Notes: generated by a model from the letters alone, not told the origin. 64,000 bases of DNA from Calditrichia bacterium (GCA_027006055.1 JALTKX010000085.1:668-64667); one strand, 5' to 3'; positions 2-34,670 are shown, counted from the first letter of the stretch. Numbers and translations are program-made.

Positions 2-3000
2 CAGATGGAACAGATTGAAGTGGACGCCGGTACCTCCACCTTTGACATCACCGTTTCCCTTGCTGACCAGACCAAAGGGCTTCTGGCTTCGGTGGAATAT
101 TGCACCGACCTGTTTGAGCGGGAAACCATCGAACGTTTTATCCGTCAATATGAAAACCTGCTGGCGGCGGCGATCGAACGTCCCGGCAGTCCCATCAGTA
201 AGCTGCCCGTCCTCAATGCCCGGGAAGAACATCTCATCCTGAAAGAGTGGAATCATTCTGATGTGCATTACGACTGGCGGCGTTGCATGCACCATCTGGT
301 GGAAGAAGAAGCGCGCCGTCAACCCGGGGCCGCGGCCGTGGCCATCGCCGGGCGTTACCTGACTTATGAACAATTAAACCGCCGCGCCAACCAACTGGCC
401 CGACATCTGCGGACGATGGGAGTTGGCCCCGAAACGCCCGTCGGCATCAGTCTGGAAAAATCCCTGGATTTAATGGTGGCCGTGTTGGGCGTGCTTAAGG
501 CCGGAGGCGGTTACGTGCCCATGGACCCCGACTATCCGCCCGAGCGCCTGGCCTATATGATCAGTGACTCGGCCACGCCGGTTTTGATCACCCATAGCCA
601 TCTTCTGGAGCGCCTGCCGCAAACACAGGCTGAAATTCTCTGCCTGGACAGCGAACGGGAGACCCTGGAAGGCTATGAAACGGATAACCCGGATGTTCCG
701 GTCCTCCCGCAAAACATGGCCTATATGATATATACCTCCGGCACCACGGGACAGGCCAAGGGCACCGTTATCAGCCACCAAAGCTGGGTGAACTCCTATT
801 ACGCCTGGGAAGAGGCCTATGAACTCAAAACCCGTTGCCGCTCGCACCTGCAAATGGCCAACTTCTCCTTTGATGTTTTTGCCGGTGATACCATCCGCGC
901 CCTTGCTTCCGGCGGAAAGATGACGCTTATCCCCAGGGAGACGCTGCTCAATGCCGAAATGCTCTACCGGGAAATGCTGCGCGAGCAGATCACCATTGCC
1001 GAATTTGTTCCGGCGGTACTGCGCAATCTGACCGGCTATCTTGACGAGATCGGCAAAGACCTCTCCTTTATGCGCTGCCTGATCGCCGGCTCGGACGCCT
1101 GGTACGTGGGCGAATACCGGCGTTTTATGGAATACGGCGGCAGCGAAACCCGTCTGATCAACTCCTTCGGTCTTACCGAGGCCGCCATCGACAGTACCTA
1201 TTTTGAAGCCAGCAAACTCGACCTGCCGGCGGATCGCAACGTGCCCATCGGCCGTCCCTTTGCCAATATGCAGGTCTATATTGTGGACAGCCATCTTAAC
1301 CCCCAACCCATCGGCGTGCCCGGAGAAATTTGCGTGGGCGGCGCGGGCGTGGCCCGGGGCTACCACGGCCGGCCGGAGCTGACGGCGGAGAAGTTCATTC
1401 CCGATCCCTTTGGCGGCCAACCCGGCGCGCGCATGTACCGCACCGGCGATAAGGGGAAATTTCTGCCCGACGGCAACATCGAGTTTATGGGCCGTATCGA
1501 CTTTCAGGTCAAATTGCGCGGTTTTCGCATAGAGCTGGGCGAAATAGAATCCGGCCTGGCCCGTCATCCGGCCATCGATCACGCGGTGGTCATCGTCCGT
1601 GAGGACGCCCCGGGCGATAAGCGGCTGGTGGCCTACTATACCCTGGAACGGGAACCCGCGCCGGGTCTTTCGGCCCTGAAATCCTTTTTATTGGAAAAGC
1701 TGCCCGACTACATGATACCCAACGCCTTCGTACGGCTGGAGGAGATCCCCCTCACTCCCAACGGCAAGGTGGATCGCAAAGCCCTGCCCAAACCGGATGA
1801 AAAGGATTTTGGGGCCATGGAAAGCTATGTAGCCCCGCGTAATGAGGCCGAGGAGAAAATGGCCGCCGTATGGGCCGAGGTACTGGGACTGGAAAAAGTG
1901 GGCGTAAACAACAACTTTTTTGATTTGGGAGGCCATTCCCTGTTGGCCACGCAACTGATCTCCCGCGTCCGGGAGACCTTTGACCTCGATATCCCCCTGC
2001 GATCCATTTTTGAACATCCGACCGTGGCCGGGCTGGCGGAGAAGACAGAGATTGCCCGGCGGGGCACCCCCACGGTGCAGGCGCCGCCGATCATGGCCGT
2101 TTCACGCTCCGGCGAGTTGCCGCTCTCCTTTGCCCAGCAGCGGCTGTGGTTCCTAGAAGAGCTGGAACCGGGCACGGCCAACTACAACATTCCCGAGTCG
2201 GTACGCATCAAGGGCAAGCTGGACGCCGACCTCTTTCAACGCTGCCTGAACACCATTATTGCCCGGCATGAAAACCTGCGCACCAATTTCATCAGCCGGG
2301 ACGGGCACCCCGCGCTGGTGATCCACAAGGAACGCACCGTGGAACTGGAACGCTTTGATCTGCGGGCGATGGAAGCGGAAGAGCGTGAACGGGAGGCCCC
2401 GCGCATTGCCGACCGCTTCGCCAAAACCATTTTCAACCTGTCCGAGGGCCCGCTGCTGCGCGCCGGTCTTATTCACATGGGCGAAGATGATTTTATATTG
2501 CTGGTGACCATCCATCACATCATCAGCGACGACTGGTCCACCCAGGTTTTTATCCGCGAGCTGGGTATTCTTTACGAGGCTTTCCTCAGGGATGAGCCCT
2601 CTCCCCTGCCACCCCTGCCGGTGCAATACGCGGACTTTGCCCATTGGCAGCAAACCTGGCTTTCCGGCGAGGTACTGGAAGAGCAGCTGGCCTTTTGGCA
2701 AAAGACCCTGGACGGAGTTTCGCCGGTACTGGAACTGCCGACCGATCGTCCGCGTCCCAAAGTGCCCTCGCAAAGGGGCAGCTATCTTACCTTTTCCTTT
2801 ACGCCGGCCGAAAGCGCGGAGATCAACACCTTTACCCGGGATCACGGCCTGACGCCCTTTATGACCCTGCTGGGCGCCTTTGAAACACTGCTTTACCGCT
2901 ACAGCGGACAGGAGAGTTTCAGCATCGGCACGCCCATCGCCAATCGTAACCGCGCCGAAACGGAACCCCTGATCGGTTTTTTTGTCAACACCCTGGTGCT

Positions 3001-6000
3001 GCCGGCCCGGCTGGAATCCCGGCCCACCTTTAACAGGCTGCTGGAACAGATCCGGGAAACCGCCCTGGACGCCTTTGCCCACCAGGATGTGCCCTTTGAA
3101 AAAATCGTCGACAGGCTTCAACCGGAACGCAGCATGAGCCACACGCCTCTTTTCCAGGTAATGTTTGCCCTGCAAAATGCCGGGAAACCGGCCAGTGGTC
3201 GGGCCGATGACCCCGACGCCGCTTTTCGGGTGGAACCGGTGGAGGCCCACAGCGGCATGTCCAAGTTCGATATCACCCTGTTTATGCTGGAACAGGAAGA
3301 GGCCTGGGCCGGGGCCTTTGAATATGCCACCGATCTCTTTGATGCCGAAACCATGGAACGCATGGCCGCCCACTTTAGGCTGCTTACCATGCAACTGATC
3401 CGGCATCCCCATACGTCCATAGAGGCCGTGCCTTTTATAGACGAACGGGAGCGGGCGCTGCTCATCACGGAGTATAACACCCCTCCGGCGCCGCCGCTAC
3501 CCTTTGACAACATTGTCTCTCTTTTGGAAGACCAGGCCGAACGCTCCGCCGACAAGATTGCCCTGGAGCAGGACGGCGTGCGCTACAGCTACGGCGAATT
3601 CAACAACGAGGTTAATCGTCTGGCCCATCTACTCATCGAAAAGGGACTGGGCGCCGAGCAGCGTGTCGGTCTCTGTTTTGAGCGCGGCCCGGAAATGATC
3701 ATCGCCCTGTTCGCCATCCTTAAAAGCGGAGCGGCCTATGTGCCCATAGACCCGGCCTATCCCGCGGAACGTATCGCCTATATGACGGATGACGCCGGGC
3801 TGGCCCTTATTCTGTACCATCAACCCACGGCGGCGGTTTTGGAAAGCTTGTCCCCGGATGTTCCGAGGCAGGCGGTCACCCTTTCTCCCCGGGAGCCTTC
3901 CGGCGGGCAGATAAGCAATCCCCAAACCGCCCTGGCCGCCGAACAACTGGCCTATATGATCTATACCTCCGGCTCCACCGGCCGGCCCAAGGGCACCCTG
4001 ATCACCCACGGCGGACTGATGCACTACCTGAACTGGGCGTCCCGGGGCTATCCCCTTAAGGAAGGACGCGGTTCCCTGGTACATTCCACCCTGGCCTTTG
4101 ACGCCACGGTGACCGCCGTATACACCCCCTTGCTGAACGGGCAAACCATCACCCTGGCGGACAACGGAAACGATTTGGAAGCGCTGGCCGGGGCCCTGAC
4201 CCGCTACAAGGATTTTAACATCGTCAAAATCACCCCGGCCCATCTTGAGCTGTTGGCGCACCAGATTCCACCCGCCCAGGCCGCCGCCCTGAGCCGCGCC
4301 TTTGTTATAGGCGGGGAAAACCTGAGCGCCGATCAGATAGCCTTTTGGCAAAAGTACGCGCCGGACGCGCATCTTTTTAATGAATACGGCCCCACGGAAA
4401 CGGTAGTGGGCTGCGTGGTTTTTGACGCCCGGGGCTGGCAGGGGCAGGGCTCCGTGCCCATCGGCCGCTCCATTCCCGGAACCCCGGTTTATGTTTTGGA
4501 CAGCCGCCTGCAACCGGCGCCTCACGGCGTTCCCGGCGAGCTCTATATCGGGGGTGCGGGCGTGGCCCGGGGCTATCACCGGCGGCCGGAGCTGACTGCG
4601 GAACGTTTTTTACCCGATCCCTTTGGCCCGCCGGGCAGCCGAATGTATAAAACCGACGACATCGTCCGCTATCTGAACAACGGCCTGTTGATCTTTCTGG
4701 GCCGCGCCGATGATCAGGTTAAGGTGCGCGGCTACCGTATTGAATTGGGGGAAATTGAAAGCCTGCTCAATGAACAGCCACAGGTAAGAGAGGCCGTGGT
4801 TGTGGTACGCGAGGACGCGCCCGGGGATAAGCGCATAGTGGCCTACTGGGTTCCCGCCGACAAAGCGGCACAACCGGAAGCCCTCCGCCAGGCCCTGGCC
4901 CTGGCCCTGCCCGAATATATGCAGCCTACGGCCTTTGTCCCCCTGGAAAGCATTCCGCTGACGCCCAACGGCAAGGTAGACCGCAAGGCGCTGCCCGCCC
5001 CGGAGCTGGACCGCTCGGCGCTTTCCCGCGAATACATCGCCCCGGAAACCGAAAGCGAAAGAAAGCTGGCGGAAATCTGGGCGGCCCTTCTGCAGGTGGA
5101 GCAGGTGGGCAAGCTGGATAATTTCTTTGAGTTGGGCGGCCATTCCCTGCTGGCGACCCAGCTTATGGCCCGTATCCGGGAACAGTTTTCCCTGGAGGCG
5201 CCGCTGCGTCTGTTATTTGAAACCCCCACGCTGGAAGGGCTGGCCGGACGGCTGGATACCCTGGAAGCGGGCGCGACGGCCGCCCTGCCCCCCTTAAAAC
5301 CCATGCCCCGCGAGGAGCCCCTGCCTCTTTCATTTGCCCAGCAAAGGTTGTGGTTCCTCGATCAGCTCAATCCGGGCAGCGCCCTTTATAACATCCCCGC
5401 CGCCTTTATTTTAAAGGGCGAGCTGGATCATGAGGCCCTGCGGCGCACCCTGAACGCCATCGCCGAACGTCACGAAACCCTGCGCAGCACCTTCGACAGC
5501 CTACAGGGTAAACCCTTTGTGGTCATCCATGACCATTTGGAGCCGGAGATCGAATTCAGAGATATCCGCGAAACGGAACCGGCGGAACGCCAGCGCCGCG
5601 CCCGCCGCATGGCCGCCGAAGAGGCCATCCGACCTTTTGATCTGCATAAAGGCCCCCTGCTGCGCTTAAGCGTTATCCGTCTTGAGGAACAAAGTCATCT
5701 TCTGATCCTGAACATGCACCACATCATTTCGGACGGATGGTCCACATCGGTGCTGATGCGCGAGGTAAGCCTGTTGTACCGGGCCTTTGCCCTGGGAGAA
5801 ACAGCGCCGCTGCCGCCGTTACCGCTGCAATATACCGACTACGCCATCTGGCAGCGCCGCTGGCTGGTGGACGAGGCCCTGGAAGAACAGATGGCCTACT
5901 GGAAGGAAAAAATCGGCCTTAATCCCCCTCCGCTGCAACTGCCCACGGATCATGCGCGGCCGGCCATGCAAACCTTTAACGGCGCCGTGCTGGACTACGC

Positions 6001-9000
6001 TCTGGATACGAAATTGACGGAAGCGGTAAAGACCCTGGCCCTGGCAAACAACCACACCCTTTATATGGTGTTGATGGCCGTCTGGAAAATTTTGATGTTT
6101 AAATACAGCGGTCAGGAAACCATTTTTACGGGCACGCCCGTGGCCAACCGCCGCTTCCGGGAAACCGAACCGTTGATCGGCTTTTTTGTCAACACCCTGG
6201 TAATGCGCGCCGATATCGACAACGGCCTGACCTTTATGGATGTTTTAGATCAGATCCGGCAAAACAGCCTGGAGGCCCAGGCCCACCAGGACATTCCCTT
6301 TGAACAGTTGGTGGACGCCCTGGTTCAGGAACGCGATATGAGCCGCTCCCCGTTGTTTCAGGTGATGTTTGTACTGCAAAACACCCCGGCAGCCGCCATG
6401 GAAAACGACGGGCTGACCATCGAAGCCTTTGAGAGCGACGAACAGATAGCGAAGTTTGACCTGACCCTTTCCATGCTGGAAAGTCCCTCCGGCCTCAAGG
6501 CGCAGTTGGAATACAACACCGACCTTTTTAAGGCAGCCACGGCCCGGCGTATTATGGAACACTTCCGCTTGTTGCTGCAACAGGTGACGGCGGAGCCCGG
6601 ACGGCCCGTTGGCGCCCTGAGCCTGATGGACGACGAGGCCCTTGCCGCCCAAAGCCGTTTCCTTGTGGGTGGAGCGCATCCCTTTCCCGACGAACATCTT
6701 ATTCATCAGCTCTTTGAGCAAACGGCCGAAGCCTTTGCCACCAAAGAGGCCCTGCGCTACAAACATGAAAGTTATACCTTTAACGATTTAAACCGCGCCG
6801 CCAACCGCCGGGCCCATCAACTGCGCCGGGCGGGACTGAAGGCGGAGCAGTTGGTCGGCATCTCGCTGGAACGCTCCCCCCACATGGTTATCGCCCTGTT
6901 GGCCGTCCTTAAGGCCGGTGGCGTATATGTGCCCATAGACCCCGAATATCCCGATGAGCGTATCCGCTATATTTTAAAGGATGCGGGTATTGGCATGCTG
7001 CTGACCACGAAAAAGACCATGCAACGGCTGCGGAGCGTTCTTGAGCGGAACGGCCCGGAGACCATCCTATTCCTGGACGAGGAAGCGGACGAAAAATTAC
7101 CGGACGACAATCCCATGGCGGTTAATCATCCGCGCAACATGGCTTATATGATCTACACCTCCGGCTCCACCGGCCGGCCCAAGGGCACCATGGTGGAACA
7201 TCGCAGCCTGTGTAACCTGACCACCTTTCAGATCAAGGACTTTCTGCTTAACGAACACAAGCGCTGCCTGCAATTTGCCAGTTTCAGCTTTGACGCCTCC
7301 GTATCGGAAATATTTACCACGCTGGTCAGCGGCGCCACGCTGGTGCTGGCCGATAAGGAAGAGATGATGCCCGGACCCGGACTGGTCAGGCTGATGCGTG
7401 ATGAACATATCACCACCATCACCCTGCCGCCCTCCGTTTCGGCCCTGCTTGAGCCGGAGGATTTCCCGGAACTCGAAACGCTGGTTTCCGCCGGAGAAGC
7501 CCTTTCGCCGGAGGTGGCCAACCGTTGGCGCATCAACAACCGTCGGCTGATCAATGCCTACGGGCCCACGGAAAACACCGTCTGCGCCACCCGCCATGTC
7601 CTCCATCATCCCGAAGAGCACTCCAGCGTGCCCATCGGCTCGCCCATAGACAACGTGCGGGTTTATGTGCTGGACAGCCGGTTGCAGCCGCAACCCTTTG
7701 GCGTGCCCGGAGAACTTTATCTGGCCGGAGACAGCCTGAGCCGCGGCTATTTTAAGCGTCCCGATCTGACGGCGGAACGTTTTGTGCCGGAGCCCTTTAG
7801 CGGCATTCCCGGCGCGCGCATGTACCGCACCGGAGACCGCGTGCGTTTGTTGGACAGCGGCCTTCTGGAATTTTTGGGACGCATGGACGAGCAGTTGAAA
7901 TTGCGCGGTTTCCGCATAGAACCCGGTGAAATCGAACATCAGTTGCGGCAATACCCCGCCGTTACCGACGCCGTGGTTATGGTGCGCGAGGCCGCGGGAC
8001 AACAGCATCTGGTGGCTTACTATATTGCCTCCGGCGAGATAGAGACCGGCGCCCTGCGCGCCCATATGGCCGGCCGCCTGCCCCACTACATGCAACCGGC
8101 GGCCTATGTGCATTTACAGTCCTTTCCCTTAACGCCCAACGGAAAAGTGGATAAGCGCGCCCTGCCGGAACCGCAATGGTCGGCGTCCGACACGCAACGT
8201 CCCTATCAGGCCCCGCGCAACGAAGATGAGGCGAAAATGGCCGGTATCTGGCGCGAAGTGCTGAACCGGGAGAAGATCAGCATCCATGACAACTTTTTTG
8301 AAATAGGCGGCCACTCCCTTTTGGCCACGCAGTTGGTCAGCAGGGTGCGCGATCTTTTCGAAACCGAGGTGGAGCTGCGTCTGCTTTTTGAAGCCCCCAC
8401 CATAAGCGCCTTTACCGCCCAGGTGCTGCAAAGCGCCTTGCAGGGCGGCGCGGGCCGGGGTATCCCCCTGGCGCCCGTGGAGCGCAATCAACGGCTGCCG
8501 CTTTCCTTTGCCCAGCAGCGTCTGTGGTTTCTGGATCAACTGGCGCCCGATCAATCCTTTTACAATATCCCGGCTTCCATCCGTCACCGCGGCAAGCTGA
8601 ATATCGGAGCTTTCAAAAAAACCGTCGAGGCCCTGATTATGCGTCATGAGGTATTGCGCACCACCTTTGGCGTGGAAGAGGGACAACCCTATCAGATAAT
8701 TCATCCCCGTTCCATCACCGAGGTGGATGTTATCGATCTGACAACGGTTGAAGAACAGGCGCGCGAGGAAGAGGCCCGGCGGTTGGTGAACGAGGAAGCC
8801 AACGAATCCTTTGATCTGGAACTGGGGCCCCTGTTCCGCGCCAAAATCGTCATCATCGCCCCCGATGACCACCTGGTGCTGTTTACCATGCATCACATCA
8901 TCTCCGACGGCTGGAGCGTGGGCATATTGATGCGCGAATTCACCATTCTTTACCAAAGTTTTGAACGGGGCCGGGAAAATCCCCTGCCGCCGCTGCCCCT

Positions 9001-12000: not shown

Positions 12001-12400
12001 AATGCTGACGGAGATGTTTAAGCGCTATTTTGAGGTGGATACCGAAGCGCTGCGCAAGCTACCCGAGGACGAGCAGTTCCGGGTGGTGCTCAAAAAGGCC
12101 AAAAAGGTGAAAGTGGTGCCCCGTTTTGTGCGGGTTGCCGACTTTCAGCGCTACATCACCGTGAACGAGACACAGATTCAGGCCTGGCTCAAATACAGGC
12201 ACAAACCGCTGCCGGGAGCCGTTCATCTGTTCCGCTCCGAAGAGAACCGGGACAAGGGCGATTTACGCTGGGGCGAACTGTGCGGGCAGGTGCATATCAT
12301 CGACGTGCCGGGCGATCATATAGCGATGCTTCAAAACCCCGATGTGCGCGAACTGGCCCAGGCCATGGACGCCTTGCTGAAGGAGAACATCAAAGCCTGA
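2..12400 (+). CDS. Non-ribosomal peptide synthetase, 5'-partial (runs off left window edge); visible domain string (C)-A-T-C-A-T-C-A-T-C-A-T-TE
   Basis: The frame is open from nt 2 and begins inside the C-terminal lobe of a condensation domain. It has four AMP-binding cores (YTSGTTGQAKG, then YTSGSTGRPKG x3), four carrier motifs (GGHSL), three HHIISD(D/G)WS condensation motifs and a terminal GSWSLG hydrolase. Stop codon at 12398-12400. Confidence 0.97.
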   Translation, partial: QMEQIEVDAGTSTFDITVSLADQTKGLLASVEYCTDLFERETIERFIRQYENLLAAAIERPGSPISKLPVLNAREEHLILKEWNHSDVHYDWRRCMHHLVEEEARRQPGAAAVAIAGRYLTYEQLNRRANQLARHLRTMGVGPETPVGISLEKSLDLMVAVLGVLKAGGGYVPMDPDYPPERLAYMISDSATPVLITHSHLLERLPQTQAEILCLDSERETLEGYETDNPDVPVLPQNMAYMIYTSGTTGQAKGTVISHQSWVNSYYAWEEAYELKTRCRSHLQMANFSFDVFAGDTIRALASGGKMTLIPRETLLNAEMLYREMLREQITIAEFVPAVLRNLTGYLDEIGKDLSFMRCLIAGSDAWYVGEYRRFMEYGGSETRLINSFGLTEAAIDSTYFEASKLDLPADRNVPIGRPFANMQVYIVDSHLNPQPIGVPGEICVGGAGVARGYHGRPELTAEKFIPDPFGGQPGARMYRTGDKGKFLPDGNIEFMGRIDFQVKLRGFRIELGEIESGLARHPAIDHAVVIVREDAPGDKRLVAYYTLEREPAPGLSALKSFLLEKLPDYMIPNAFVRLEEIPLTPNGKVDRKALPKPDEKDFGAMESYVAPRNEAEEKMAAVWAEVLGLEKVGVNNNFFDLGGHSLLATQLISRVRETFDLDIPLRSIFEHPTVAGLAEKTEIARRGTPTVQAPPIMAVSRSGELPLSFAQQRLWFLEELEPGTANYNIPESVRIKGKLDADLFQRCLNTIIARHENLRTNFISRDGHPALVIHKERTVELERFDLRAMEAEEREREAPRIADRFAKTIFNLSEGPLLRAGLIHMGEDDFILLVTIHHIISDDWSTQVFIRELGILYEAFLRDEPSPLPPLPVQYADFAHWQQTWLSGEVLEEQLAFWQKTLDGVSPVLELPTDRPRPKVPSQRGSYLTFSFTPAESAEINTFTRDHGLTPFMTLLGAFETLLYRYSGQESFSIGTPIANRNRAETEPLIGFFVNTLVLPARLESRPTFNRLLEQIRETALDAFAHQDVPFEKIVDRLQPERSMSHTPLFQVMFALQNAGKPASGRADDPDAAFRVEPVEAHSGMSKFDITLFMLEQEEAWAGAFEYATDLFDAETMERMAAHFRLLTMQLIRHPHTSIEAVPFIDERERALLITEYNTPPAPPLPFDNIVSLLEDQAERSADKIALEQDGVRYSYGEFNNEVNRLAHLLIEKGLGAEQRVGLCFERGPEMIIALFAILKSGAAYVPIDPAYPAERIAYMTDDAGLALILYHQPTAAVLESLSPDVPRQAVTLSPREPSGGQISNPQTALAAEQLAYMIYTSGSTGRPKGTLITHGGLMHYLNWASRGYPLKEGRGSLVHSTLAFDATVTAVYTPLLNGQTITLADNGNDLEALAGALTRYKDFNIVKITPAHLELLAHQIPPAQAAALSRAFVIGGENLSADQIAFWQKYAPDAHLFNEYGPTETVVGCVVFDARGWQGQGSVPIGRSIPGTPVYVLDSRLQPAPHGVPGELYIGGAGVARGYHRRPELTAERFLPDPFGPPGSRMYKTDDIVRYLNNGLLIFLGRADDQVKVRGYRIELGEIESLLNEQPQVREAVVVVREDAPGDKRIVAYWVPADKAAQPEALRQALALALPEYMQPTAFVPLESIPLTPNGKVDRKALPAPELDRSALSREYIAPETESERKLAEIWAALLQVEQVGKLDNFFELGGHSLLATQLMARIREQFSLEAPLRLLFETPTLEGLAGRLDTLEAGATAALPPLKPMPREEPLPLSFAQQRLWFLDQLNPGSALYNIPAAFILKGELDHEALRRTLNAIAERHETLRSTFDSLQGKPFVVIHDHLEPEIEFRDIRETEPAERQRRARRMAAEEAIRPFDLHKGPLLRLSVIRLEEQSHLLILNMHHIISDGWSTSVLMREVSLLYRAFALGETAPLPPLPLQYTDYAIWQRRWLVDEALEEQMAYWKEKIGLNPPPLQLPTDHARPAMQTFNGAVLDYALDTKLTEAVKTLALANNHTLYMVLMAVWKILMFKYSGQETIFTGTPVANRRFRETEPLIGFFVNTLVMRADIDNGLTFMDVLDQIRQNSLEAQAHQDIPFEQLVDALVQERDMSRSPLFQVMFVLQNTPAAAMENDGLTIEAFESDEQIAKFDLTLSMLESPSGLKAQLEYNTDLFKAATARRIMEHFRLLLQQVTAEPGRPVGALSLMDDEALAAQSRFLVGGAHPFPDEHLIHQLFEQTAEAFATKEALRYKHESYTFNDLNRAANRRAHQLRRAGLKAEQLVGISLERSPHMVIALLAVLKAGGVYVPIDPEYPDERIRYILKDAGIGMLLTTKKTMQRLRSVLERNGPETILFLDEEADEKLPDDNPMAVNHPRNMAYMIYTSGSTGRPKGTMVEHRSLCNLTTFQIKDFLLNEHKRCLQFASFSFDASVSEIFTTLVSGATLVLADKEEMMPGPGLVRLMRDEHITTITLPPSVSALLEPEDFPELETLVSAGEALSPEVANRWRINNRRLINAYGPTENTVCATRHVLHHPEEHSSVPIGSPIDNVRVYVLDSRLQPQPFGVPGELYLAGDSLSRGYFKRPDLTAERFVPEPFSGIPGARMYRTGDRVRLLDSGLLEFLGRMDEQLKLRGFRIEPGEIEHQLRQYPAVTDAVVMVREAAGQQHLVAYYIASGEIETGALRAHMAGRLPHYMQPAAYVHLQSFPLTPNGKVDKRALPEPQWSASDTQRPYQAPRNEDEAKMAGIWREVLNREKISIHDNFFEIGGHSLLATQLVSRVRDLFETEVELRLLFEAPTISAFTAQVLQSALQGGAGRGIPLAPVERNQRLPLSFAQQRLWFLDQLAPDQSFYNIPASIRHRGKLNIGAFKKTVEALIMRHEVLRTTFGVEEGQPYQIIHPRSITEVDVIDLTTVEEQAREEEARRLVNEEANESFDLELGPLFRAKIVIIAPDDHLVLFTMHHIISDGWSVGILMREFTILYQSFERGRENPLPPLPLQYADYAVWQRSWLKDEELQKQIDYWKEHIGLNPPVLQLPLDFQRPAVQTFNGDSLPFTVEQETLEKLKAFGQQEGVTLFMTLLAAFQTFLHHYSGQDEILVGSPIANRTRSETEALIGFFVNTLVFRADFDERLTFRQLLARTRKDTLDAYGHQDLPFEQLVEILQPERDMSHSPVFQVMFVLQNTPSGEVDMGDSRIRPIEAEQKIAKYDLSLIAMESPHGLQVEFEYNTDLFHEKTIRRMQERFAFLLEMLADQCDRPVSALYLLPDKEREKVLALGRGQRHPAPGRELIQHLFEETVLRYPHHTAVVFKDRSLSFKELNERANRLARFLRDSGVGPEKLVAISLERSVEMVVGLLAVIKAGGVYVPVDPDYPLERISYILEDAKSPWLLTSRALGERFRDLDARLIMLDDPLPGAYREKTENPRYLNQLENLAYVIYTSGSTGRPKGTMLTHRGLCNLTLRQIEDFQLTPERRCLQFASFSFDASVSEIFTTLVSGAALYLMDRTTQTSTKKLTGLMRDSRITTVTLPPSLLTILKDEPLPDLHTLISAGEALAPDLARHWSAKCRLLNAYGPTENTVCASRYEVSPEEKRATIPIGAALGNVRLYVLDENMNLTPTGLPGELYLAGTNLARGYLNRPDLTAERFLPDPFDGEPGARMYRTGDRVRWLESGHLEFLGRADSQLKVRGFRIEPGEIEARMRSHPAVKDAVLNLARGGNGVSYLAAYVIWKEEARPEALKTALSEHLPDYMVPAVYIALEQIPLTPNGKVDYRALPQAALQAETAGSEYIAPRNAMETRLAEIWETILGVTNVGVRHSFFELGGHSLMAMQLLNAIEKQFKKDVTLIDFFKEPTIEHLAALLTEEHTEESGVRLMQLAKGAANRPAVFFVHPSGGAVHHYQELAGRLTAGLRFYGIQAQGLDGKTPLHKTIEEMAEAYIGAMKEEQAEGPYILGSWSLGVIISYEMARQLRARGDEVALLMQLDQGPFVEHKSPEDTAEMLTEMFKRYFEVDTEALRKLPEDEQFRVVLKKAKKVKVVPRFVRVADFQRYITVNETQIQAWLKYRHKPLPGAVHLFRSEENRDKGDLRWGELCGQVHIIDVPGDHIAMLQNPDVRELAQAMDALLKENIKA
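290..1790 (+). other. Adenylation domain 1; by-eye Stachelhaus code DVGEIGSIDK (ornithine)
   Basis: Anchors: LTYEQLN (A1), MAYMIYTSGTTGQAKG (A3, about nt 716-765), FDVFAG (235/236/239), AEFVP (278=E), CLIAGSD (299=I, 301=G), NSFGLTEAAID (322=S, 330=I, 331=D), PNGKVDRKALP (K517). Boundaries are approximate. Confidence 0.75.
1826..2046 (+). other. Carrier (T/PCP) domain 1
   Basis: FFDLGGHSLLATQ motif. The phosphopantetheine-accepting Ser codon is tcc at 1937-1939. Confidence 0.9.
2117..3440 (+). other. Condensation domain (LCL-like) of module 2
   Basis: Starts with LPLSFAQQRLWFLEEL. The HHIISDD active-site motif is at 2513-2533. Boundaries are approximate. Confidence 0.85.
3515..4996 (+). other. 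Adenylation domain 2; by-eye Stachelhaus code DATKVGEVGK (asparagine)
   Basis: Anchors: LAYMIYTSGSTGRPKG (about 3946-3995), FDATVT, VKITPAH (278=K when the TP is aligned to GrsA P280-P281), FVIGGEN (299=V, 301=G), NEYGPTETVVG (322=E, 330=V, 331=G), PNGKVDRKALP. Confidence 0.7.
5033..5260 (+). other. Carrier (T/PCP) domain 2
   Basis: FFELGGHSLLATQ motif. Ser codon tcc at 5144-5146. Confidence 0.9.
5321..6640 (+). other. Condensation domain (LCL-like) of module 3
   Basis: Starts with LPLSFAQQRLWFLDQL. HHIISDG motif at 5717-5737. Confidence 0.85.
6700..8170 (+). other. Adenylation domain 3; by-eye Stachelhaus code DASTVAAVCK (tyrosine)
   Basis: Anchors: MAYMIYTSGSTGRPKG (about 7139-7186), FDASVS, ITLPP (278=T, gap-free against GrsA numbering), TLVSAGE (299=V, 301=A), NAYGPTENTVC (322=A, 330=V, 331=C), PNGKVDKRALP. 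Confidence 0.75.
8204..8430 (+). other. Carrier (T/PCP) domain 3
   Basis: FFEIGGHSLLATQ motif. Ser codon tcc at 8315-8317. Confidence 0.9.
8495..9815 (+). other. Condensation domain (LCL-like) of module 4
   Basis: Starts with LPLSFAQQRLWFLDQL. HHIISDG motif at 8891-8911. Confidence 0.85.
9872..11335 (+). other. Adenylation domain 4; by-eye Stachelhaus code DASTIAAVCK (tyrosine / aromatic)
   Basis: Anchors: LAYVIYTSGSTGRPKG (about 10304-10350), FDASVS, VTLPP (278=T), TLISAGE (299=I, 301=A), NAYGPTENTVC, PNGKVDYRALP. Confidence 0.72.
11369..11600 (+). other. Carrier (T/PCP) domain 4
   Basis: FFELGGHSLMAMQ motif. Ser codon tcg at 11480-11482. Confidence 0.9.
11640..12397 (+). other. Terminal thioesterase (TE) release domain
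   Basis: VFFVHPSGG oxyanion-type start and a GSWSLG nucleophile elbow (Ser codon 11873-11875). A C-terminal PGDH segment is consistent with the catalytic His. It is the last domain before the stop codon. Confidence 0.88.
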
Positions 12401-12490
12401 GAGCGCCGGCCGCCGCGGGCGGACTAATTTTTTTGTTCGATAGTAAAAAAAAGTTAAGTTTAGCAAAAAATAGTAACTAAAAGCCAGAGT

Positions 12491-13906
12491 ATGAGTCATA
12501 ACGAAACCGCAACGCTGAAGAACGAGGGGCACAGCCTGTCCACAAGCAACAAGTTGTTCAATCGCAACTATCTTATGTTGTTTCAGGGACAGTTTGTAAG
12601 CCGCCTGGGTAACAGCATCTACTCCATCGCCATCATGATCTGGCTGAAACAGATCACCGATTCGGGAACGGTTATGGGCATATTTGCCGCCTCCACGGCC
12701 CTGCCCATGATTATGATGAGCGCCATCGGCGGCGCCGTGGCCGACCGTCTCCCGCGTAAGGCCATCATCGTCGGTACCGATGTGGTTAGCGGGCTGGCCA
12801 TGTTGTTCCTGGCGGCAACCTTTTACGCGAATCTGCCGCCGGTTTACAGTATCGCGGGGGTCTTTATCGCCGGGCTGATCATGTCTACCATGCGCGCGTT
12901 TTTCGGGCCGGCCATCAATGCGGCCATCCCCGATCTTGTTCCGGAAAAACGCATTTCCGGCGCCAATTCCATGGGCAAGTTGTCGGAAAAATTCAGCCAG
13001 TTTTTCGGCTATTTTTTCGGCAGCCAACTGCTTATGATTCTTGGCCTGCCCATTCTGGTTATCATCAACGGCGTCAGTTATCTTTTATCCGCCTTCAGCG
13101 AATCGTTCATCCACATCCCGCAGCGCCTGCCGGAAAAAACAAAGGGGGTAAAGGCGTATCTGCGGGCCTTTAAGACTGATATTGGCGAAGGGCTGCGCTA
13201 TATTGGCCGGAACCGGGGGTTAAAAAAACTGCTCTACCTCTCCATTTCCACGGCCTTTTTCTCCACGCCGATCATGATCCTGTTGATTTTTTACGTGACC
13301 GATTTTTTAAAGCTCGGCGAGCAATGGTTCGGTTATTTTCTGATCGATTTCGGGGTCGGTTCCCTGGTGGGCACCATCATCGTCAGCATCTTTAACGTGC
13401 ATGGCGCCGCCCGGAAATTCTTTCTGATACTCTTTTTAATTTTCGAAGCGGTGGGTTATGCTCTGCTCGGTCAGGTTTCTTCCGCGGAGCAGGCCCTGGC
13501 CCTGGTGTTCATCGGCGGAGTGATGAACGGGTTCACCACCATCAGCATTTTTACCCTGATGCAGATTACCACCCCCAGTAAAATCCGCGGCCGCATCTTT
13601 GGCACGCTGACCACCCTTTCCGGCGCCATCGCTCCCCTGGGCATGGCCCTGGGCGGTTTTTTATACGACTTTTTCGACAAGGACATCGCCATGATCTACG
13701 GCATATCCGGCGCCGGTATGCTGGTGGCGGTATTCTTTGTCTCGCTGAGCAGGGACTTCCGGCGTTTTATCGCCTATCAAACCCCGGAACAACTCGGTCA
13801 TACCGGCTTCAGCTATACGATAAAAAAAGTACACAAAAATCAAATTTTAGAACAAAAAGAACGTTTCATTGAAGAACAATTCAAAAAAACAAGGAGTCAA
13901 TTATGA
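12491..13906 (+). CDS. MFS transporter (EntS/MFS_3-like putative exporter)
   Basis: 471 aa with about 12 hydrophobic helices. The N-terminal [22 protein letters not shown] plus [11 protein letters not shown] loop is typical of the MFS_3 drug/siderophore exporter type. Its stop overlaps the next start by 4 nt (ATGA). Confidence 0.85.
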
Positions 13907-14115
13907 GTGAAGAACGCGAGGACAAAACCGTATATAAGGTTGTTGTTAACGACGAAGAGCAATACTCAATTTGGCCGGCCGACCGCGAGAACGCGCCGGG
14001 TTGGAAAGACGCGGGCAAATCGGGCAGCAAGCAGGAATGCCTCGATTATGTGAAAGAGGTCTGGACCGATATGCGTCCCAAGAGCCTGCGCGAAAAAATG
14101 GACGCGCAAAAGTAA
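13903..14115 (+). CDS. MbtH-like protein (adenylation-domain chaperone)
   Basis: 70 aa carrying the MbtH signature [10 protein letters not shown]...PGW...[21 protein letters not shown]. Confidence 0.93.
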
Positions 14116-14123
14116 ATCCGTTT

Positions 14124-14145
14124 CATCGCCGGGAAACCGGCGATG
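14124..14145 (+). other. Perfect 9-bp stem / GAAA tetraloop RNA hairpin without a U-tract
   Basis: catcgccgg-gaaa-ccggcgatg, 9 nt after the MbtH stop codon. It is followed by catcatag rather than a T run. Confidence 0.6.
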
Positions 14146-14215
14146 CATCATAGTCAAACAACAGACCTTTTATATCCGTCCGGAATACGGCTAATGCATA
14201 ACAGAGGACAGGCGT

Positions 14216-14833
14216 GTGGATTCAAAAAAACTGGTAACCATCCTGACGGCACTATTAGCGGTTGAATGGATATTCGCGGCCATTGCGCCCTATGACCGGA
14301 AAGACTGGCTCCTGGAAAATATCCTGGTCATTCTTTTTGTACCGGTGATCTGGCACAGTGTGTTAAAGGCTCCCCTGAGCAGGCTTTCATACATCTCCCT
14401 GTTTCTCTTTTTATATCTGCATGAGTTGGGCTCGCACTACACCTACGCCCAGGTGCCTTACAAGGAGTGGGCCGCTTCTCTTTTGGGCTGGGACTTAGGC
14501 GGGGGCCGTAATAATTTCGACCGTCTGGTACATTTCCTGTACGGTTTTTTGTTTACCATCCCGGTTATGGAATGGTTTGCCCGTAAATATTCCCTAAGGG
14601 GATTTGTAAAATATTTTTTACCGGTTAATCTGATCATGTCCACCTCCATGATTTATGAACTGATCGAATGGCTGGTGGCGGAACTTTTTGGCGGTGATTT
14701 GGGGCAGGCCTATCTGGGCACCCAGGGCGACGTGTGGGACGCCCATAAGGATATGGCCCTGGCCAGTCTCGGCTCCGTGTTAATAATGGGCCTCTATCTT
14801 CTGTATAAAAAAAGGTACGTGAAAAACAGATGA
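14216..14833 (+). CDS. DUF2238 (E. coli YjdF-like) polytopic inner-membrane protein, function unknown
   Basis: GTG start, 205 aa, 5-6 hydrophobic helices. HELGSHYTY and YELIEW segments match my memory of DUF2238. Its stop overlaps the TEII start by 4 nt. Confidence 0.6.
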   Translation: MDSKKLVTILTALLAVEWIFAAIAPYDRKDWLLENILVILFVPVIWHSVLKAPLSRLSYISLFLFLYLHELGSHYTYAQVPYKEWAASLLGWDLGGGRNNFDRLVHFLYGFLFTIPVMEWFARKYSLRGFVKYFLPVNLIMSTSMIYELIEWLVAELFGGDLGQAYLGTQGDVWDAHKDMALASLGSVLIMGLYLLYKKRYVKNR

Positions 14834-15588
14834 ACAGAACATCGAATCCGTGGCTGGTAAAAAGCGCGGTAAAACAGAACCCGAAATTAAAACTCTTTTG
14901 TCTGCCCTTTGCCGGCGGCAGCAGTGTGGCCTACCGGGATTGGGGCCGTTTGTTACCGGACGGCATAGAGGCCATCGCCGTGGAAATTCCCGGCCGGGGA
15001 CAGCGTCTGATGGAGCCGCTGATCACCAGCCTTCCCGAACTTGTGGAGCAGATAGGCGCCCACATCCGGGATGAACTGGACAGGCCCTATGCCTTTTTCG
15101 GGCACAGCATGGGCGCCACCCTGGCTTATGAACTGAGCCATCATCTGGCCACCCGCTTTAACACGCAACCCGTTTTCCTTTTTCTTTCGGGACGGAGCGC
15201 CCCTCATCTTTGCGACCGGGAAGAACCGATCCACCAACTGCCGGACGAGGACTTCCGCGAGAAAATACGCAGTTTTGAAGGCACACCGCCGGAGATTATG
15301 CAACATAAAGAGCTGATGGAGCTGCTGATGCCGATAATCCGCGCCGATTTTAAGATGGTGGAAACCTATGTTCATGAAAGCCGTCCACCTCTGGATATTC
15401 CCATGAGCCTGTTTGGCGGGCTGGAGGATGAAAGCACCCCGCGCGCACATCTTGACGCCTGGCAGGGCTATACGACGTCCTCGTTTTCCGTGCGCATGTT
15501 TCCCGGCGGACATTTTTTTCTGCAAAAACAGACAGGACGCATACTTGAGCTGATTCTTCGTGACCTTAGCGGAATTATGGCTCTCTAA
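14830..15588 (+). CDS. Type II (editing) thioesterase
   Basis: 252 aa alpha/beta hydrolase with LFCLPFAGGS, a GHSMGA nucleophile elbow and a C-terminal GGHFF His motif. This is the classic TEII layout. Confidence 0.9.
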   Translation: MNRTSNPWLVKSAVKQNPKLKLFCLPFAGGSSVAYRDWGRLLPDGIEAIAVEIPGRGQRLMEPLITSLPELVEQIGAHIRDELDRPYAFFGHSMGATLAYELSHHLATRFNTQPVFLFLSGRSAPHLCDREEPIHQLPDEDFREKIRSFEGTPPEIMQHKELMELLMPIIRADFKMVETYVHESRPPLDIPMSLFGGLEDESTPRAHLDAWQGYTTSSFSVRMFPGGHFFLQKQTGRILELILRDLSGIMAL

Positions 15589-15594
15589 GGTATT

Positions 15595-16317
15595 ATGAAC
15601 AGCGATTTGTGGCATACATATCATGATGAACGGCCCGCCGCGGACGAACTTTTTATCTGGCTGCTCGATTTTGAGCGCCTGGGGAAAAGCACGAGATTTG
15701 AGGCCATGCTAACGGAAGAGGAACGGAATCGCGCCGCGCGTTTTTATTTTGAAAAAGACCGCCGCGCCTTCACCATTACCCGCGGTTATCTTAAGGAACG
15801 CCTGCAAACGTTGAGCGGTTTGCCGGTCGCGGACAGAAACTTTGAGTTTAACAGTCAGGGCAAGCCCTATCTTAAGGGCTCTTCTCTTTTCTTTAACGTA
15901 TCGCATTCGGGAAAAAAAGCGCTTGTGGCCCTGACCCCGCTGGCGCCCGTGGGCGTGGATGTGGAAGCGTTCCGCCCCGATATGGGCACGGAAAAGATAG
16001 CCCGCCGCTTTTTTTCGGAAAAAGAGGTCGCGGAATTCAACGCCCTGCCCCCGGAGCAGCGCCCCCAGGGCTTTTTTAATGCCTGGACGCGCAAGGAGGC
16101 CTTTATAAAGGCCGCGGGACTGGGGCTTTCCATGCCGCTGCACTCTTTTGACGTGAGCCTGACGCCCGGCCGCGAGGCCAGACTGATCGCGGCCCGCCAT
16201 CCCGGATATGACGCGCGGGACTGGCATTTAGACGCGCTGCCTATCGAACCGCCTTATGCGGCGGCTTATTGCATAAAACACACATCCGCCCGGGTTCGCC
16301 TGTGGCTGGCAGAATAA
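15595..16317 (+). CDS. Sfp-type 4'-phosphopantetheinyl transferase
   Basis: FNVSHSG, GVDVE and WTRKEAFIKA motifs. Confidence 0.9.
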   Translation: MNSDLWHTYHDERPAADELFIWLLDFERLGKSTRFEAMLTEEERNRAARFYFEKDRRAFTITRGYLKERLQTLSGLPVADRNFEFNSQGKPYLKGSSLFFNVSHSGKKALVALTPLAPVGVDVEAFRPDMGTEKIARRFFSEKEVAEFNALPPEQRPQGFFNAWTRKEAFIKAAGLGLSMPLHSFDVSLTPGREARLIAARHPGYDARDWHLDALPIEPPYAAAYCIKHTSARVRLWLAE

Positions 16318-16331
16318 GGACAAAGCAAACC

Positions 16332-17429
16332 ATGCAGATACTTGTCGGGACAAAACTTAACAACTGGGTAAAACTTTTTGGCCGTCATTTTAGGGAAATA
16401 CCGGCCGGGAAGCTGGGTGTCGCCCTGCAACTGACCATTACCACCTACTTCCGCAATAACCGTTTTGAAGCGAAAGAGCATGAAGCATATGGCGATAAAA
16501 TAGAAGCGGCCCGGGTAAATCCGGCACCGGTATTCGTTCTGGGCCACTGGCGCAGCGGTACTTCCCATCTGCACCGGCTTTTAAGCCTGGGGGAGCAATT
16601 CACCTACCCCACGGTGTTTGATATATACAGTCCGCACTCCTTTCTGTACACGGCCCCGATGCTTCACGAAAGAATGAAAACAGCTGGCGCGCAAAAAAGA
16701 CCGATGGATCAGATGAAAATAAAATTTGACGATCCCGGCGAGGATGAGTTCGCGCTGGCGGTGATGTCCCTGATGTCCCCCGTGCTGGCCTGGGTATTCC
16801 CTAAATCCACGGCCTTTTACGACCGCTATCTGACCTTTGAAGAAGTGGATCAAAAGGAGATAGACCACTGGAAGGCGCAATTCCTTTACTTTATAAAAAA
16901 GCTGAATACGCGGAATCCCAAACCGGTTATCCTTAAGTCGCCACAACATACGGCGCGTATACGATTGCTTAAGGAGATGTTCCCCGGAGCGCGGTTTATC
17001 CATGTGCACCGCAATCCGTACGATGTTTACAACTCCACGGTTAAACTGTATGAAAAAACCGTGCGCCCCATGCAACTGACCGACAGCATCGCCCCGGAGC
17101 AGATGCGGGAAGGCATTATTGAGCGCTACGCCACCATGTACCGCAATTTTTTCCGGGAGAGCGCTCTTCTTCCGGAAGATCAGTTTTTGGACGTCAGCTA
17201 TGAAGAGTTGGACCGCCAGCCGCTTCAACTGATAGAACGGATATTCAAGCATTTTGGCTTTGAGGGCTATGAAGCCTACGAGCCTTTGCTGAAAGCGCAT
17301 CTTGACAACATAGGAAATTACAAAAAGAACACATATACCCCCGTGGCCGAACCCTGGCTTTCGCGCCTGAACAGGGAATGGGCCATTGCCTTTGATAAAT
17401 GGAATTATCCTCTAAAAACGGAGAACTAA
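16332..17429 (+). CDS. PAPS-dependent sulfotransferase family protein (ST1)
   Basis: 5'-PSB loop GHWRSGTSHL and a 3'-PB-like KSPQHTARIRLLKEMFPGARFIHVHRNPYDV. I prefer the ATG at 16332 (AAGGA 13 nt upstream) over the tracked 16269, which overlaps the PPTase gene. Confidence 0.82.
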   Translation: MQILVGTKLNNWVKLFGRHFREIPAGKLGVALQLTITTYFRNNRFEAKEHEAYGDKIEAARVNPAPVFVLGHWRSGTSHLHRLLSLGEQFTYPTVFDIYSPHSFLYTAPMLHERMKTAGAQKRPMDQMKIKFDDPGEDEFALAVMSLMSPVLAWVFPKSTAFYDRYLTFEEVDQKEIDHWKAQFLYFIKKLNTRNPKPVILKSPQHTARIRLLKEMFPGARFIHVHRNPYDVYNSTVKLYEKTVRPMQLTDSIAPEQMREGIIERYATMYRNFFRESALLPEDQFLDVSYEELDRQPLQLIERIFKHFGFEGYEAYEPLLKAHLDNIGNYKKNTYTPVAEPWLSRLNREWAIAFDKWNYPLKTEN

Positions 17430-18499
17430 TGGATAGTGTTACCGGCCTGTTACCCGGACAGTGGTATAACCTGCTTCGGGATAACGGATTTAAGATTAGC
17501 CGGCCGGGGCGGACGGCCCTAATTACCGCCCTCAGCTTAAGAAACAGGAACTACCTTAAAAAAGAAAGGAGCCTTTATCCCGCGGAACCGCCTTCGGCGC
17601 CGGTCTCTCCGCCGCCCCTGTTTATTTTGGGACATTGGCGCAGCGGCACCACCTTTCTGCATAATCTTTTAAGTCTGGACGAGCGGCTTACCTTTCCCCA
17701 TGTCTATCAGGTAAACAATCCTCACACATTCTTGCATATCAGAAATTGTTTTCAAAAGGAACTCAGGGAGCGTTCCGCGAAGAAACGATCCATGGACAAC
17801 ATAAAGACCTCACCCGTTTCTCCGGGAGAGGATGAGTTTGCCCTGGCCGTCTTAACCCTGACCTCGCCACTGATCGGCTGGTTGTTCCCACAGCGGCAGG
17901 AATACTATGACCGCTACACTACTTTTGAAAAGGTCGCCCCGGAAGTTACGGAGCAGTGGAAAAAAAGCTATGGCGCTTTTTTCAGCAAAATTCAGTATGC
18001 CGATCCGGGCAAGCCCATTCTTTCAAAATCGCCCTTAAACACGGCCCGCATAAGGCTTTTAAATTCCATCTTTCCGGGAGCGCGCTTTATTTTTATCCAC
18101 CGCCATCCCTTGCAGGTTTTTAAATCAACCCGCCGTCTGTACGACAGCGCCATCGCGCTTTCCGCTTTACAACAACGGAAATACGACGTCGACGCGCGCA
18201 TCCTGAAACGCTATGCGGAGATACACGACGCTTATTTAGAGCAAAAGAGGGAGATTGACAGCGACAAGCTTTTGGAAGTATCTTTTGAAGAACTCGATTC
18301 TGATCCGCTTAAGGTGCTCCAACAGATATACCGTTTTCACAAGCTTGAGGGTTTTGATGATTTAAAAAAGGAAGCGGAACCGTATCTGAGCGGCCTGAAC
18401 CATAAAAAGAACAGATACAATGAGGCGGAGCCCGGAATCATTGAAAAAATTAAACGGCATTGGGAACCCTTTTTGAGGGAATGGAATTACAAGCTTTAA
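17429..18499 (+). CDS. PAPS-dependent sulfotransferase family protein (ST2), paralogue of ST1
   Basis: GHWRSGTTFL and KSPLNTARIRLLNSIFPGARFIFIHRHPLQV. It is collinear with ST1 over the whole length, roughly 40 percent identical by eye. The ATG at 17429 overlaps the ST1 stop (TAATG). Confidence 0.82.
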   Translation: MDSVTGLLPGQWYNLLRDNGFKISRPGRTALITALSLRNRNYLKKERSLYPAEPPSAPVSPPPLFILGHWRSGTTFLHNLLSLDERLTFPHVYQVNNPHTFLHIRNCFQKELRERSAKKRSMDNIKTSPVSPGEDEFALAVLTLTSPLIGWLFPQRQEYYDRYTTFEKVAPEVTEQWKKSYGAFFSKIQYADPGKPILSKSPLNTARIRLLNSIFPGARFIFIHRHPLQVFKSTRRLYDSAIALSALQQRKYDVDARILKRYAEIHDAYLEQKREIDSDKLLEVSFEELDSDPLKVLQQIYRFHKLEGFDDLKKEAEPYLSGLNHKKNRYNEAEPGIIEKIKRHWEPFLREWNYKL

Positions 18500-25649: not shown

Positions 25650-25679
25650 GCTAACTCCTCAAATTAGCTTAACCCCAAG

Positions 25680-25712
25680 GTCCCCCGAATATCCCCGGGG
25701 GACTTTTTTTTT
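25680..25712 (+). terminator. Rho-independent terminator of the T9SS-cargo gene
   Basis: 8-bp GC stem gtcccccg / cgggggac (25680-25687 / 25696-25703), followed by T9 (25704-25712). Confidence 0.85.
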
Positions 25713-26559: not shown

Positions 26560-26636
26560 TTTGACCTCCAAAGGGTGGGAAACATCCATGTATGGCCTTA
26601 TTATACAGAAATAAAAAGAAGAATTCGTGTTCCTGC

Positions 26637-34669: not shown

Positions 34670-34670
34670 T

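Follow-up and report, generated by a model that had tools for sequence, protein, structure and literature searches.

The 64,000-nt stretch of Calditrichia bacterium DNA analysed here, one strand of which is called the window below, opens within the terminal gene of a non-ribosomal peptide synthetase (NRPS). This gene is followed by a string of accessory genes that ends with two genes, ST1 and ST2, for sulfotransferases (STs) of the 3'-phosphoadenosine 5'-phosphosulfate (PAPS) type. This report deals with the resulting cassette and with the sulfated peptide for which it may be responsible. All cassette genes lie on the plus strand. Open reading frame (ORF) calls and Pfam searches gave the order NRPS tail, major facilitator superfamily (MFS) exporter, MbtH, DUF2238, type II thioesterase (TEII), phosphopantetheinyl transferase (PPTase), ST1 and ST2. 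The genes are co-directional and either overlap or are separated by gaps of at most about 100 nt. A preliminary description of this DNA had given the same gene string and coordinates as well as a TAATG junction between ST1 and ST2, and the annotation agreed with it in these points.

The synthetase and its accessory genes

The NRPS gene (2..12400, +) is open at the window start and contributes its 3' 4132 codons. These encode the domain string (C)-A-T-C-A-T-C-A-T-C-A-T-TE, in which C, A, T and TE stand for condensation, adenylation, carrier and thioesterase domains. Pfam detected four Condensation, four AMP-binding, four PP-binding and one Thioesterase domain, and no epimerization (E) or methyltransferase domain was found in this NRPS tail. 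In the translation, the carrier serines (GGHS) and the GxSxG motif of the TE can be recognized. The terminal type I TE domain (11666..12359, +; residues 3888-4119) carries the serine motif GSWSLG. With its C-A-T modules, its terminal TE and the accompanying MbtH, TEII and PPTase, the system has the features of a type I modular NRPS.

Downstream of the synthetase lies an MFS exporter of the EntS/MFS_3 type (12491..13906, +), which was recognized by the Pfam models MFS_1 and MFS_3 and by an NCBIfam EntS-like match below the cut-off. An EntS-like MFS_3 pump is kept across the cassettes of relatives. The MbtH-like A-domain chaperone gene (13903..14115, +; Pfam MbtH, E 1e-22) overlaps the MFS stop by 4 nt and is followed by a Pfam-assigned DUF2238 membrane protein gene (14216..14833, +). 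DUF2238 was rejected as a core component of the cassette: it is missing from L010, L013 and every cassette outside Calditrichota (tblastn table). The next two genes encode the editing TEII (14830..15588, +; Pfam Thioesterase, E 2e-49) and a Sfp/HetI-type 4'-phosphopantetheinyl transferase (15595..16317, +; Pfam ACPS and AASDHPPT_N, NCBIfam HetI-like match below the cut-off). ST1 (16332..17429, +; 365 aa, start chosen as in relatives) begins 14 nt past the PPTase stop and is followed directly by ST2 (17429..18499, +; 356 aa). The two ST genes are joined by the sequence TAATG (17427-17431), in which one A belongs both to the stop codon of ST1 and to the start codon of ST2; a GGAG lies upstream.

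Stachelhaus codes were taken from alignments of the A domains with GrsA-PheA, a procedure that in a control recovered the code DAWTIAAICK of GrsA itself. The four A domains (approximate limits 161..1790, 3392..4997, 6584..8168 and 9749..11333, all +) gave, from the N- to the C-terminal module, DVGEIGSIDK, DATKVGEVGK, DASTVAAVCK and DASTIAAVCK. Going by the Stachelhaus 1999 table, the third is a probable Tyr code and the fourth is probably of the Tyr type. The by-eye reading ...Orn-Asn-Tyr-Tyr of the preliminary description held by code extraction. No open-access literature containing the strings DASTVAAVCK or DASTIAAVCK was found. DASTVAAVCK differs from the Phe code DAWTIAAICK by W239S, I299V and I330V. 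The first code is that of Orn (PMC3992020) and the second that of Asn (PMC3547906). Since the His motifs of the visible C domains are all HHIISDG/D, unlike the HHLL(F/L)DG of relatives' C domains that follow E domains, we infer that the four residues Orn, Asn, Tyr and Tyr are L-configured.

The assembly line appears to be longer than the part covered by the window. In the identical contig L001 the terminal NRPS gene has its full length of 4519 aa (gene length as called in L001 and L004), so that about 387 aa belonging to its first C domain precede the window. Gene content further upstream was read from relatives of other lineages. The relative L177 shares 44% identity with the window across the overlapping part, and in L093 the preceding NRPS gene ends with a carrier domain and a short tail. 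This preceding gene encodes about 2130 aa in the relatives, arranged C-A-T-C-A-T, with the codes DAATVVG(V/I)GK (aromatic-like) and DAWTIAAVCK (Phe-type). Further NRPS genes are found upstream in L095 (2155 aa and 2621 aa, with Gln, Asn and E) and, as partial genes, in L096 and L177. The relatives carry two to three additional NRPS genes upstream, with at least four to six additional modules. Because the terminal gene opens with a C domain and relatives possess upstream NRPS genes, Orn-Asn-Tyr-Tyr is not the whole peptide, and its interpretation as a complete tetrapeptide was rejected. By sequence the four residues would only form the C-terminal end of a longer product, with perhaps eight to ten residues or more in total. 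Among the 79 matches listed from a metagenome scan no locus had an ST within reach, and the best ones belonged to other NRPS families.

Two further observations concern the synthetase genes of relatives. In L002/L007 (ENA ERZ23491050 scaffold_34, 93% identical) the terminal NRPS was called as two overlapping ORFs of 3124 aa and 1406 aa, which reflects either a frameshift or an assembly error. In the related assembly line of L176 (7004-8914), two NRPS genes are separated by a PhdYeFM/ParE toxin-antitoxin pair and a gene for an AAA_14/DUF4143 ATPase.

The sulfotransferases and their linkage to NRPS genes

ST1 and ST2, previously called sulfotransferases from their motifs, matched the Pfam family Sulfotransfer_3 (PF13469, cut-off 27) with 121.6 bits (E 7e-35) and 115.3 bits (E 6e-33), respectively. 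No matching NCBIfam model was found for either protein. The two are paralogues with 36% identity. Both carry the 5'-phosphosulfate-binding (5'-PSB) loop GHWRSGT(S/T) and the segment KSPxxTARIRLL...FPGARFIxxHRxP. In a 62-sequence alignment the 5'-PSB motif GHWRSGT and the 3'-phosphate-binding (3'-PB) residues R227...S235 (ST1 numbering) are invariant, ST2 included, and ST2 retains every other invariant column as well. The 5'-PSB loop of ST1 aligns with the loop of STF1. The PAPS motifs named in the preliminary description are present in both enzymes, and the alignment revealed no loss of key PAPS-binding residues. The AlphaFold2 model of ST1 reached a predicted local distance difference test value (pLDDT) of 95.2 and a predicted template modelling score (pTM) of 0.93, with helices at 2-59 preceding the core. 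All of its top 50 Foldseek matches in the PDB were sulfotransferases or the sulfotransferase-fold retinol dehydratase. With intact predicted PAPS sites, clear Sulfotransfer_3 scores and a confident predicted fold, ST1 and ST2 look active.

By sequence profile and fold the closest solved relatives are STF1 and STF9, then the CurM and olefin-synthase (OLS) ST domains, then tyrosylprotein sulfotransferase (TPST). By these matches ST1 and ST2 are assigned to the Stf1/Stf9/Stf3-like lineage of Sulfotransfer_3. STF1 of M. tuberculosis (PDB 2ZQ5; profile E 1e-14, TM 0.65) and STF9 of M. avium (PDB 2Z6V; profile E 3e-16, TM 0.70) share with them an RxGT(T/S) 5'-PSB, a length of about 365-410 aa and an N-terminal helical extension, whereas the identity to the window STs is only 16-20%. 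STF1 and STF9 are not known to have a defined physiological substrate or an NRPS linkage. Stf3 of M. tuberculosis, whose gene adjoins cyp128 in the sulfomenaquinone pathway (PMC7404182), belongs to the same broad lineage, and JGI names a 39%-identical homologue as the Stf3 enzyme. Stf3 sulfates an aliphatic omega-hydroxyl installed on a lipid by a cytochrome P450, whereas in the window the cassette lacks a P450 and belongs with an NRPS. The Stf3/Cyp128 arrangement itself has parallels among members of the family that are not linked to NRPS genes. In L032 (9956-12327, Lentibacter) and L023 (8730-11272, Luteolibacter) the ST gene is immediately followed by a P450 gene, with an adjoining HMG-CoA reductase gene in L032. 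By analogy, these pairs suggest sulfated isoprenoid lipids of the Stf3/Cyp128 type outside mycobacteria.

The CurM ST (4GBM) and the OLS ST (4GOX) are third and fourth closest by structure and sequence and also work on a thiotemplate assembly line. They are, however, domains embedded in polyketide synthases (acyl carrier protein (ACP)-ST-TE) which sulfate a beta-hydroxyl as leaving group for decarboxylative elimination. In contrast, ST1 and ST2 have genes of their own 3' of the TE, in a cassette without ketoreductase (KR) or beta-hydroxylation function. TPST1/2, tick TPST and RaxST resemble the window enzymes in sulfating Tyr phenols in peptides, in an RSGTT-type 5'-PSB and in an R...S 3'-PB. 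The TPST match to a window ST is weak but significant (profile E 6.5e-4, TM about 0.45); identity amounts to only 12-15%, and the substrates are ribosomal proteins or peptides.

StaL and Teg12-14 are free-standing PAPS enzymes of NRPS clusters which sulfate phenolic or hydroxyl groups of the released peptide scaffold. They resemble ST1 and ST2 in this working logic only; their hosts are actinomycetes and their substrates cross-linked heptapeptides. A relationship of ST1 and ST2 to StaL and Teg12-14 was rejected, as these enzymes gave no match in the PDB profile search at E<=10 and were absent from the top 50 fold matches. PMC11143521 includes StaL in its list of natural-product STs. Sulfation in NRPS pathways is further described for SulN (sulfazecin), TotS (totopotensamide) and, for aeruginosin-type peptides, AerL and ST domains (PMC11143521, PMC10143770). 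These likewise correspond to ST1 and ST2 in working logic, while by descent ST1 and ST2 probably stand apart from them in the Stf1/Stf9/Stf3-like lineage. Their acceptors are different, namely an N-sulfamate on diaminopropionate (Dap), a chlorinated dihydroxyphenylglycine and 2-carboxy-6-hydroxyoctahydroindole (Choi) or glyceric acid, and their hosts belong to different phyla.

The ST family is large, with 1107 homologue matches and more than 592 loci in species-representative genomes. The neighbourhood survey covered 80 GTDB loci with family members (tblastn table) and was combined with a neighbour-joining (NJ) tree of 85 ST ORFs. At 17 of the 80 loci the ST has NRPS, MFS, MbtH, TEII or PPTase genes beside it. 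Represented among the 17 are Calditrichota, Cytophagia, Anaerolineae, Melioribacteraceae and Blastocatellia, along with a few metagenome-assembled genomes (MAGs) that are unclassified or labelled differently. All 17 fall into one NJ clade together with ST1 and ST2. The exact split has a bootstrap value of 61/100, the ST1-type core one of 100/100 and the ST2-type grouping one of 31-49. The 56 STs that fall elsewhere in the tree (53 loci; Planctomycetota, Verrucomicrobiota, Rhodobacterales, cyanobacteria and others) all lack an NRPS cassette beside them, though a few of these loci show weak A-domain- or PPTase-like matches. Judged from the tree and the gene neighbourhoods, the ST1/ST2 branch is linked to NRPS genes across five phyla, while the wider family mostly is not. 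The tie between STs and NRPS proposed in the preliminary description is thereby strengthened: the STs are the only tailoring enzymes of the cassette, and their clade keeps its NRPS neighbours.

Orthologous clusters with two STs were found at 92-52% ST identity, including relatives at 61%, 54% and 52%. L010 has the rearranged order MbtH-ST-TEII-PPT-ST without DUF2238 and still possesses two STs. Cassettes outside Calditrichota are ordered NRPS-TE, ST, MFS, (MbtH), TEII, PPT, and in Anaerolineae, Melioribacteraceae and Blastocatellia the ST gene stands directly 3' of the TE-ending NRPS gene as the sole tailoring gene. Apparently the arrangement is not due to chance, as relatives with as little as 52% ST identity keep the same gene set, which is also met again in other phyla. 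On the sequences compared, only Calditrichota show the duplication into an ST1-type and an ST2-type enzyme.

The G+C content of the NRPS gene is 57-61%, compared to about 52% for the accessory genes and 42-55% for the rest of the window. The high value for the NRPS and the spread of the cassette across phyla are compatible with horizontal acquisition.

Individual relatives carry additional genes. At L027 (10113-12068, Anaerolineae) a gene of the choline/carnitine O-acyltransferase family is located between the MFS and TEII genes, an extra tailoring step found only there. SBBP beta-propeller secreted proteins are encoded beside or inside the NRPS-ST cassette of three unrelated relatives, at L014 (11283-13862), L017 (14346-17675, minus strand) and L018 (4340-6343); two of the three have type IX secretion system (T9SS) sorting tails.

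The proposed sulfate acceptor

The cassette lacks genes for a hydroxylase, P450 or KR, and P450 genes were absent from the whole window and from every NRPS-linked cassette. As the cassette encodes no enzyme to install a hydroxyl, the sulfate must go to one that is intrinsic to a side chain. The Tyr-type modules provide the only hydroxyl-bearing residues visible in the window. The best overall explanation, to which we assign a probability of roughly 0.55, is that the two NRPS-dedicated STs of the cluster sulfate the peptide and that the two C-terminal Tyr phenols are the best visible acceptor candidates. By its codes and domains the terminal synthetase adds Orn, Asn, Tyr and Tyr and its TE releases the chain, with MbtH, TEII and PPTase servicing the synthetase. 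According to this proposal the STs would move sulfate from PAPS to hydroxyls of the peptide after its release or possibly while it is carrier-bound, and the anionic product would be exported via the EntS-type MFS pump. That the product is a sulfated non-ribosomal peptide at all is probable from the gene content. For the O-sulfation of at least one C-terminal Tyr we see about an even chance, and exact double sulfation with one enzyme per Tyr is doubtful.

The last modules of the relatives bear on this question. Two STs accompany the visible terminal modules Tyr, Tyr in L009 and L010, Tyr, DADTTAGVCK in L013 and a single visible Tyr-type module in L018. One ST accompanies Asn, Tyr-type, Tyr-type in both L029 and L054, Tyr-type, Tyr-type in L027, Tyr-type, Asn in L017 and Asn, DAETIAGVCK (Lys-like by our own reading) in L073. 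Of the 12 NRPS-linked lineages with visible A domains, 10 carry Tyr-type codes in their final module or final two modules. The ending Asn-Tyr-Tyr-TE is common to three phyla, including Anaerolineae and Melioribacteraceae with one ST, and this shared ending points to a horizontal spread of one cluster family.

A rule of one ST per Tyr was rejected on these data, since L027, L029 and L054 combine two Tyr-type modules with one ST and L013 combines two STs with one Tyr-type module among its last two. The preliminary description had equated the number of phenols with the number of STs and had assigned each enzyme to one Tyr of ...-Orn-Asn-Tyr-Tyr. The codes and the intact PAPS motifs behind this assignment stand, whereas the count per Tyr does not survive the comparison with the relatives. 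The ST duplication probably reflects two sites or two substrate states and not a simple Tyr count.

Several findings weigh against the sulfation of the terminal Tyr residues as formulated above. The number of STs does not track the visible Tyr modules in L027, L029, L054 and L013, nor in L018 with its one visible module, and L073 retains an ST without a Tyr-type code in the last two modules. As the relatives are homologous, the recurrence of Tyr among them is not independent evidence. The support of the NRPS-linked clade is moderate (61%), that of the ST2-type grouping weak (31-49%). No PAPS-synthesis genes were found within the window. The nearest characterised relatives, Stf3 and the CurM ST, sulfate aliphatic hydroxyls, and the TPST match is distant. 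Furthermore, the proposal is drawn from sequence and predicted structure.

Some of the same findings would fit a sulfated peptide whose acceptor comes from upstream modules, in the form of the aromatic-like residue encoded by DAATVVG(V/I)GK, of Ser/Thr or of an N-terminal hydroxy-acyl group. The terminal gene begins with a C domain, and at least four to six modules on two to three further NRPS genes precede it in the relatives, the aromatic-like one included, so that other acceptors are possible. L073, the independence of ST and Tyr counts and the preference of the nearest characterised STs for aliphatic hydroxyls point in the same direction. Against an upstream acceptor, the Tyr-type modules are the only hydroxyl-bearing ones in the window and recur in most NRPS-linked relatives. 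The eight readable modules of L095 include no Ser/Thr code, although L095 is not tied to an ST-bearing locus. We consider an upstream acceptor a possible but rather less likely solution.

Alternatively, sulfation could be transient, an on-line activating, protecting or pro-drug step as in the models provided by SulN and the CurM ST, which would leave no stable disulfate. SulN is reported to act in trans on a carrier-bound peptide (Oliver et al. 2018, cited in PMC11143521). The CurM and OLS STs are moreover the next-nearest solved relatives after STF1 and STF9, and in cassettes outside Calditrichota the ST gene abuts the TE-ending NRPS gene. The STs of the window are nevertheless free-standing, unlike the CurM ST beside its ACP-TE. 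No beta-hydroxylating enzyme is encoded, and no sulfatase was found within the window. On chemical grounds an aryl sulfate should also be a poor leaving group for substitution at carbon. The CurM-like use of sulfate as a leaving group, which the preliminary description had offered as an alternative, is therefore chemically improbable for a phenol, and transient sulfation as a whole appears unlikely. Even more improbable is a role of ST1 and ST2 in a separate pathway for envelope lipids or polysaccharides, with the NRPS as a mere neighbour. Most of the ST family does lie outside NRPS clusters, in Planctomycetota, Verrucomicrobiota, Rhodobacterales and cyanobacteria; some members stand beside P450 and isoprenoid genes or a capsule-synthesis gene, and one homologue carries the JGI label of an Stf3 enzyme. 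Yet the adjacency to NRPS genes survives five phyla and changes in gene order, and the NRPS-linked STs cluster in the tree. The short distance of ST1 from the PPTase gene (14 nt) and the one-base overlap of ST2 with ST1 likewise speak against an envelope function.

Surroundings, source organism and significance

A block of five genes, again with tiny gaps or overlaps, is located 3' of ST2. It accompanies the cassette in every Calditrichota relative and not in other phyla. The first gene encodes a lipoprotein-like protein of 325 aa (18539..19516, +) which has no Pfam or NCBIfam match and always follows the STs in Calditrichota. It is followed by the gene for a sigma-54 enhancer-binding protein with the Pfam domain order GAF-AAA+-HTH_8 (19518..20972, +), syntenic only in Calditrichota. 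A Ser/Thr protein kinase with a C-terminal PEGA domain (20972..22489, +; Pfam) and a 261-aa protein without Pfam or NCBIfam match (22486..23271, +) are also syntenic in Calditrichota. A T9SS-tailed CarboxypepD_reg protein (23448..25649, +) is encoded co-directionally with the cassette. The sigma-54 activator is a possible regulator of the cluster, and the 325-aa protein is possibly associated with it. The block may represent lineage-specific regulation or simply a conserved neighbourhood. The only convincing intrinsic-terminator hairpin downstream of the gene string (25677..25706, +) stands behind the gene for the T9SS-tailed protein and has an 11-bp stem and a T run; it is a lead only, as the overall number of terminator-like sites is not above the shuffled expectation.

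Directly past the block, at 25771-27128 on the minus strand, lie genes for a GNAT acetyltransferase and a 4HBT thioesterase, which occupy the same place in L007 and L008. Housekeeping genes make up the window from 26 to 64 kb, including purL, IMPDH, FeoB, DPP-IV and two-component genes. A tandem pair of hybrid histidine-kinase/receiver proteins encoded with an HDOD-domain protein (33452-37214, minus strand) looks like a signalling module unrelated to the cassette. A 389-aa protein (38671-39840, minus strand) combines an N-terminal HU domain (Bac_DNA_binding) with an extension of about 295 aa without domain match.

The nearest ST homologues stem from Caldithrix and other Calditrichota MAGs. A protein identical to MbtH is encoded on 13 metagenome contigs that carry the same cluster, one of the sources being a hydrothermal-vent metagenome, and the contig REYS20-1_SAMN12239307_METAG-scaffold_230 (ENA ERZ23495147) is 100% identical to the window at 3903-24115. 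The host is a Calditrichota bacterium that has not been cultivated and comes from a hydrothermal or sediment habitat, in agreement with the earlier suggestion of an FCB-like bacterium, since Calditrichota belongs to the FCB (Fibrobacterota-Chlorobiota-Bacteroidota) group.

Few sulfated non-ribosomal peptides are known; their producers are actinomycetes, pseudomonads and cyanobacteria, and the STs involved appear to be of other lineages. No characterised natural product is known from Calditrichota. Open-access literature on this cluster family or on sulfated peptides from these phyla was not found. Tentatively, and with less confidence than in peptide sulfation as such, the Stf-like NRPS-dedicated clade may mark a cross-phylum family of sulfotyrosine peptides with a ...Orn-Asn-Tyr-Tyr C-terminus, doubly O-sulfated in Calditrichota. 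Such a family would extend over Calditrichota, Anaerolineae, Ignavibacteriota, Cytophagia and Acidobacteriota and would have spread horizontally. If so, it would give bacterial phyla without characterised natural products a non-ribosomal equivalent of phytosulfokine and similar disulfated peptide signals.

The new aspect is that the Stf1/Stf9/Stf3-like lineage has apparently been recruited for the only tailoring step in an NRPS cassette that is self-sufficient. This cassette seems to have moved among at least five phyla, whose members are mostly uncultivated bacteria of sediments and hydrothermal sites. Overall, the cluster is a solid genome-mining lead and not a conceptual surprise. Confirmation of the product would provide a characterised natural product for Calditrichota and a class of peptide-sulfating enzymes useful for biocatalysis. 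It would also indicate what kind of substrate is used by one branch of a very large family, which has more than 1000 homologues and almost no functional annotation.

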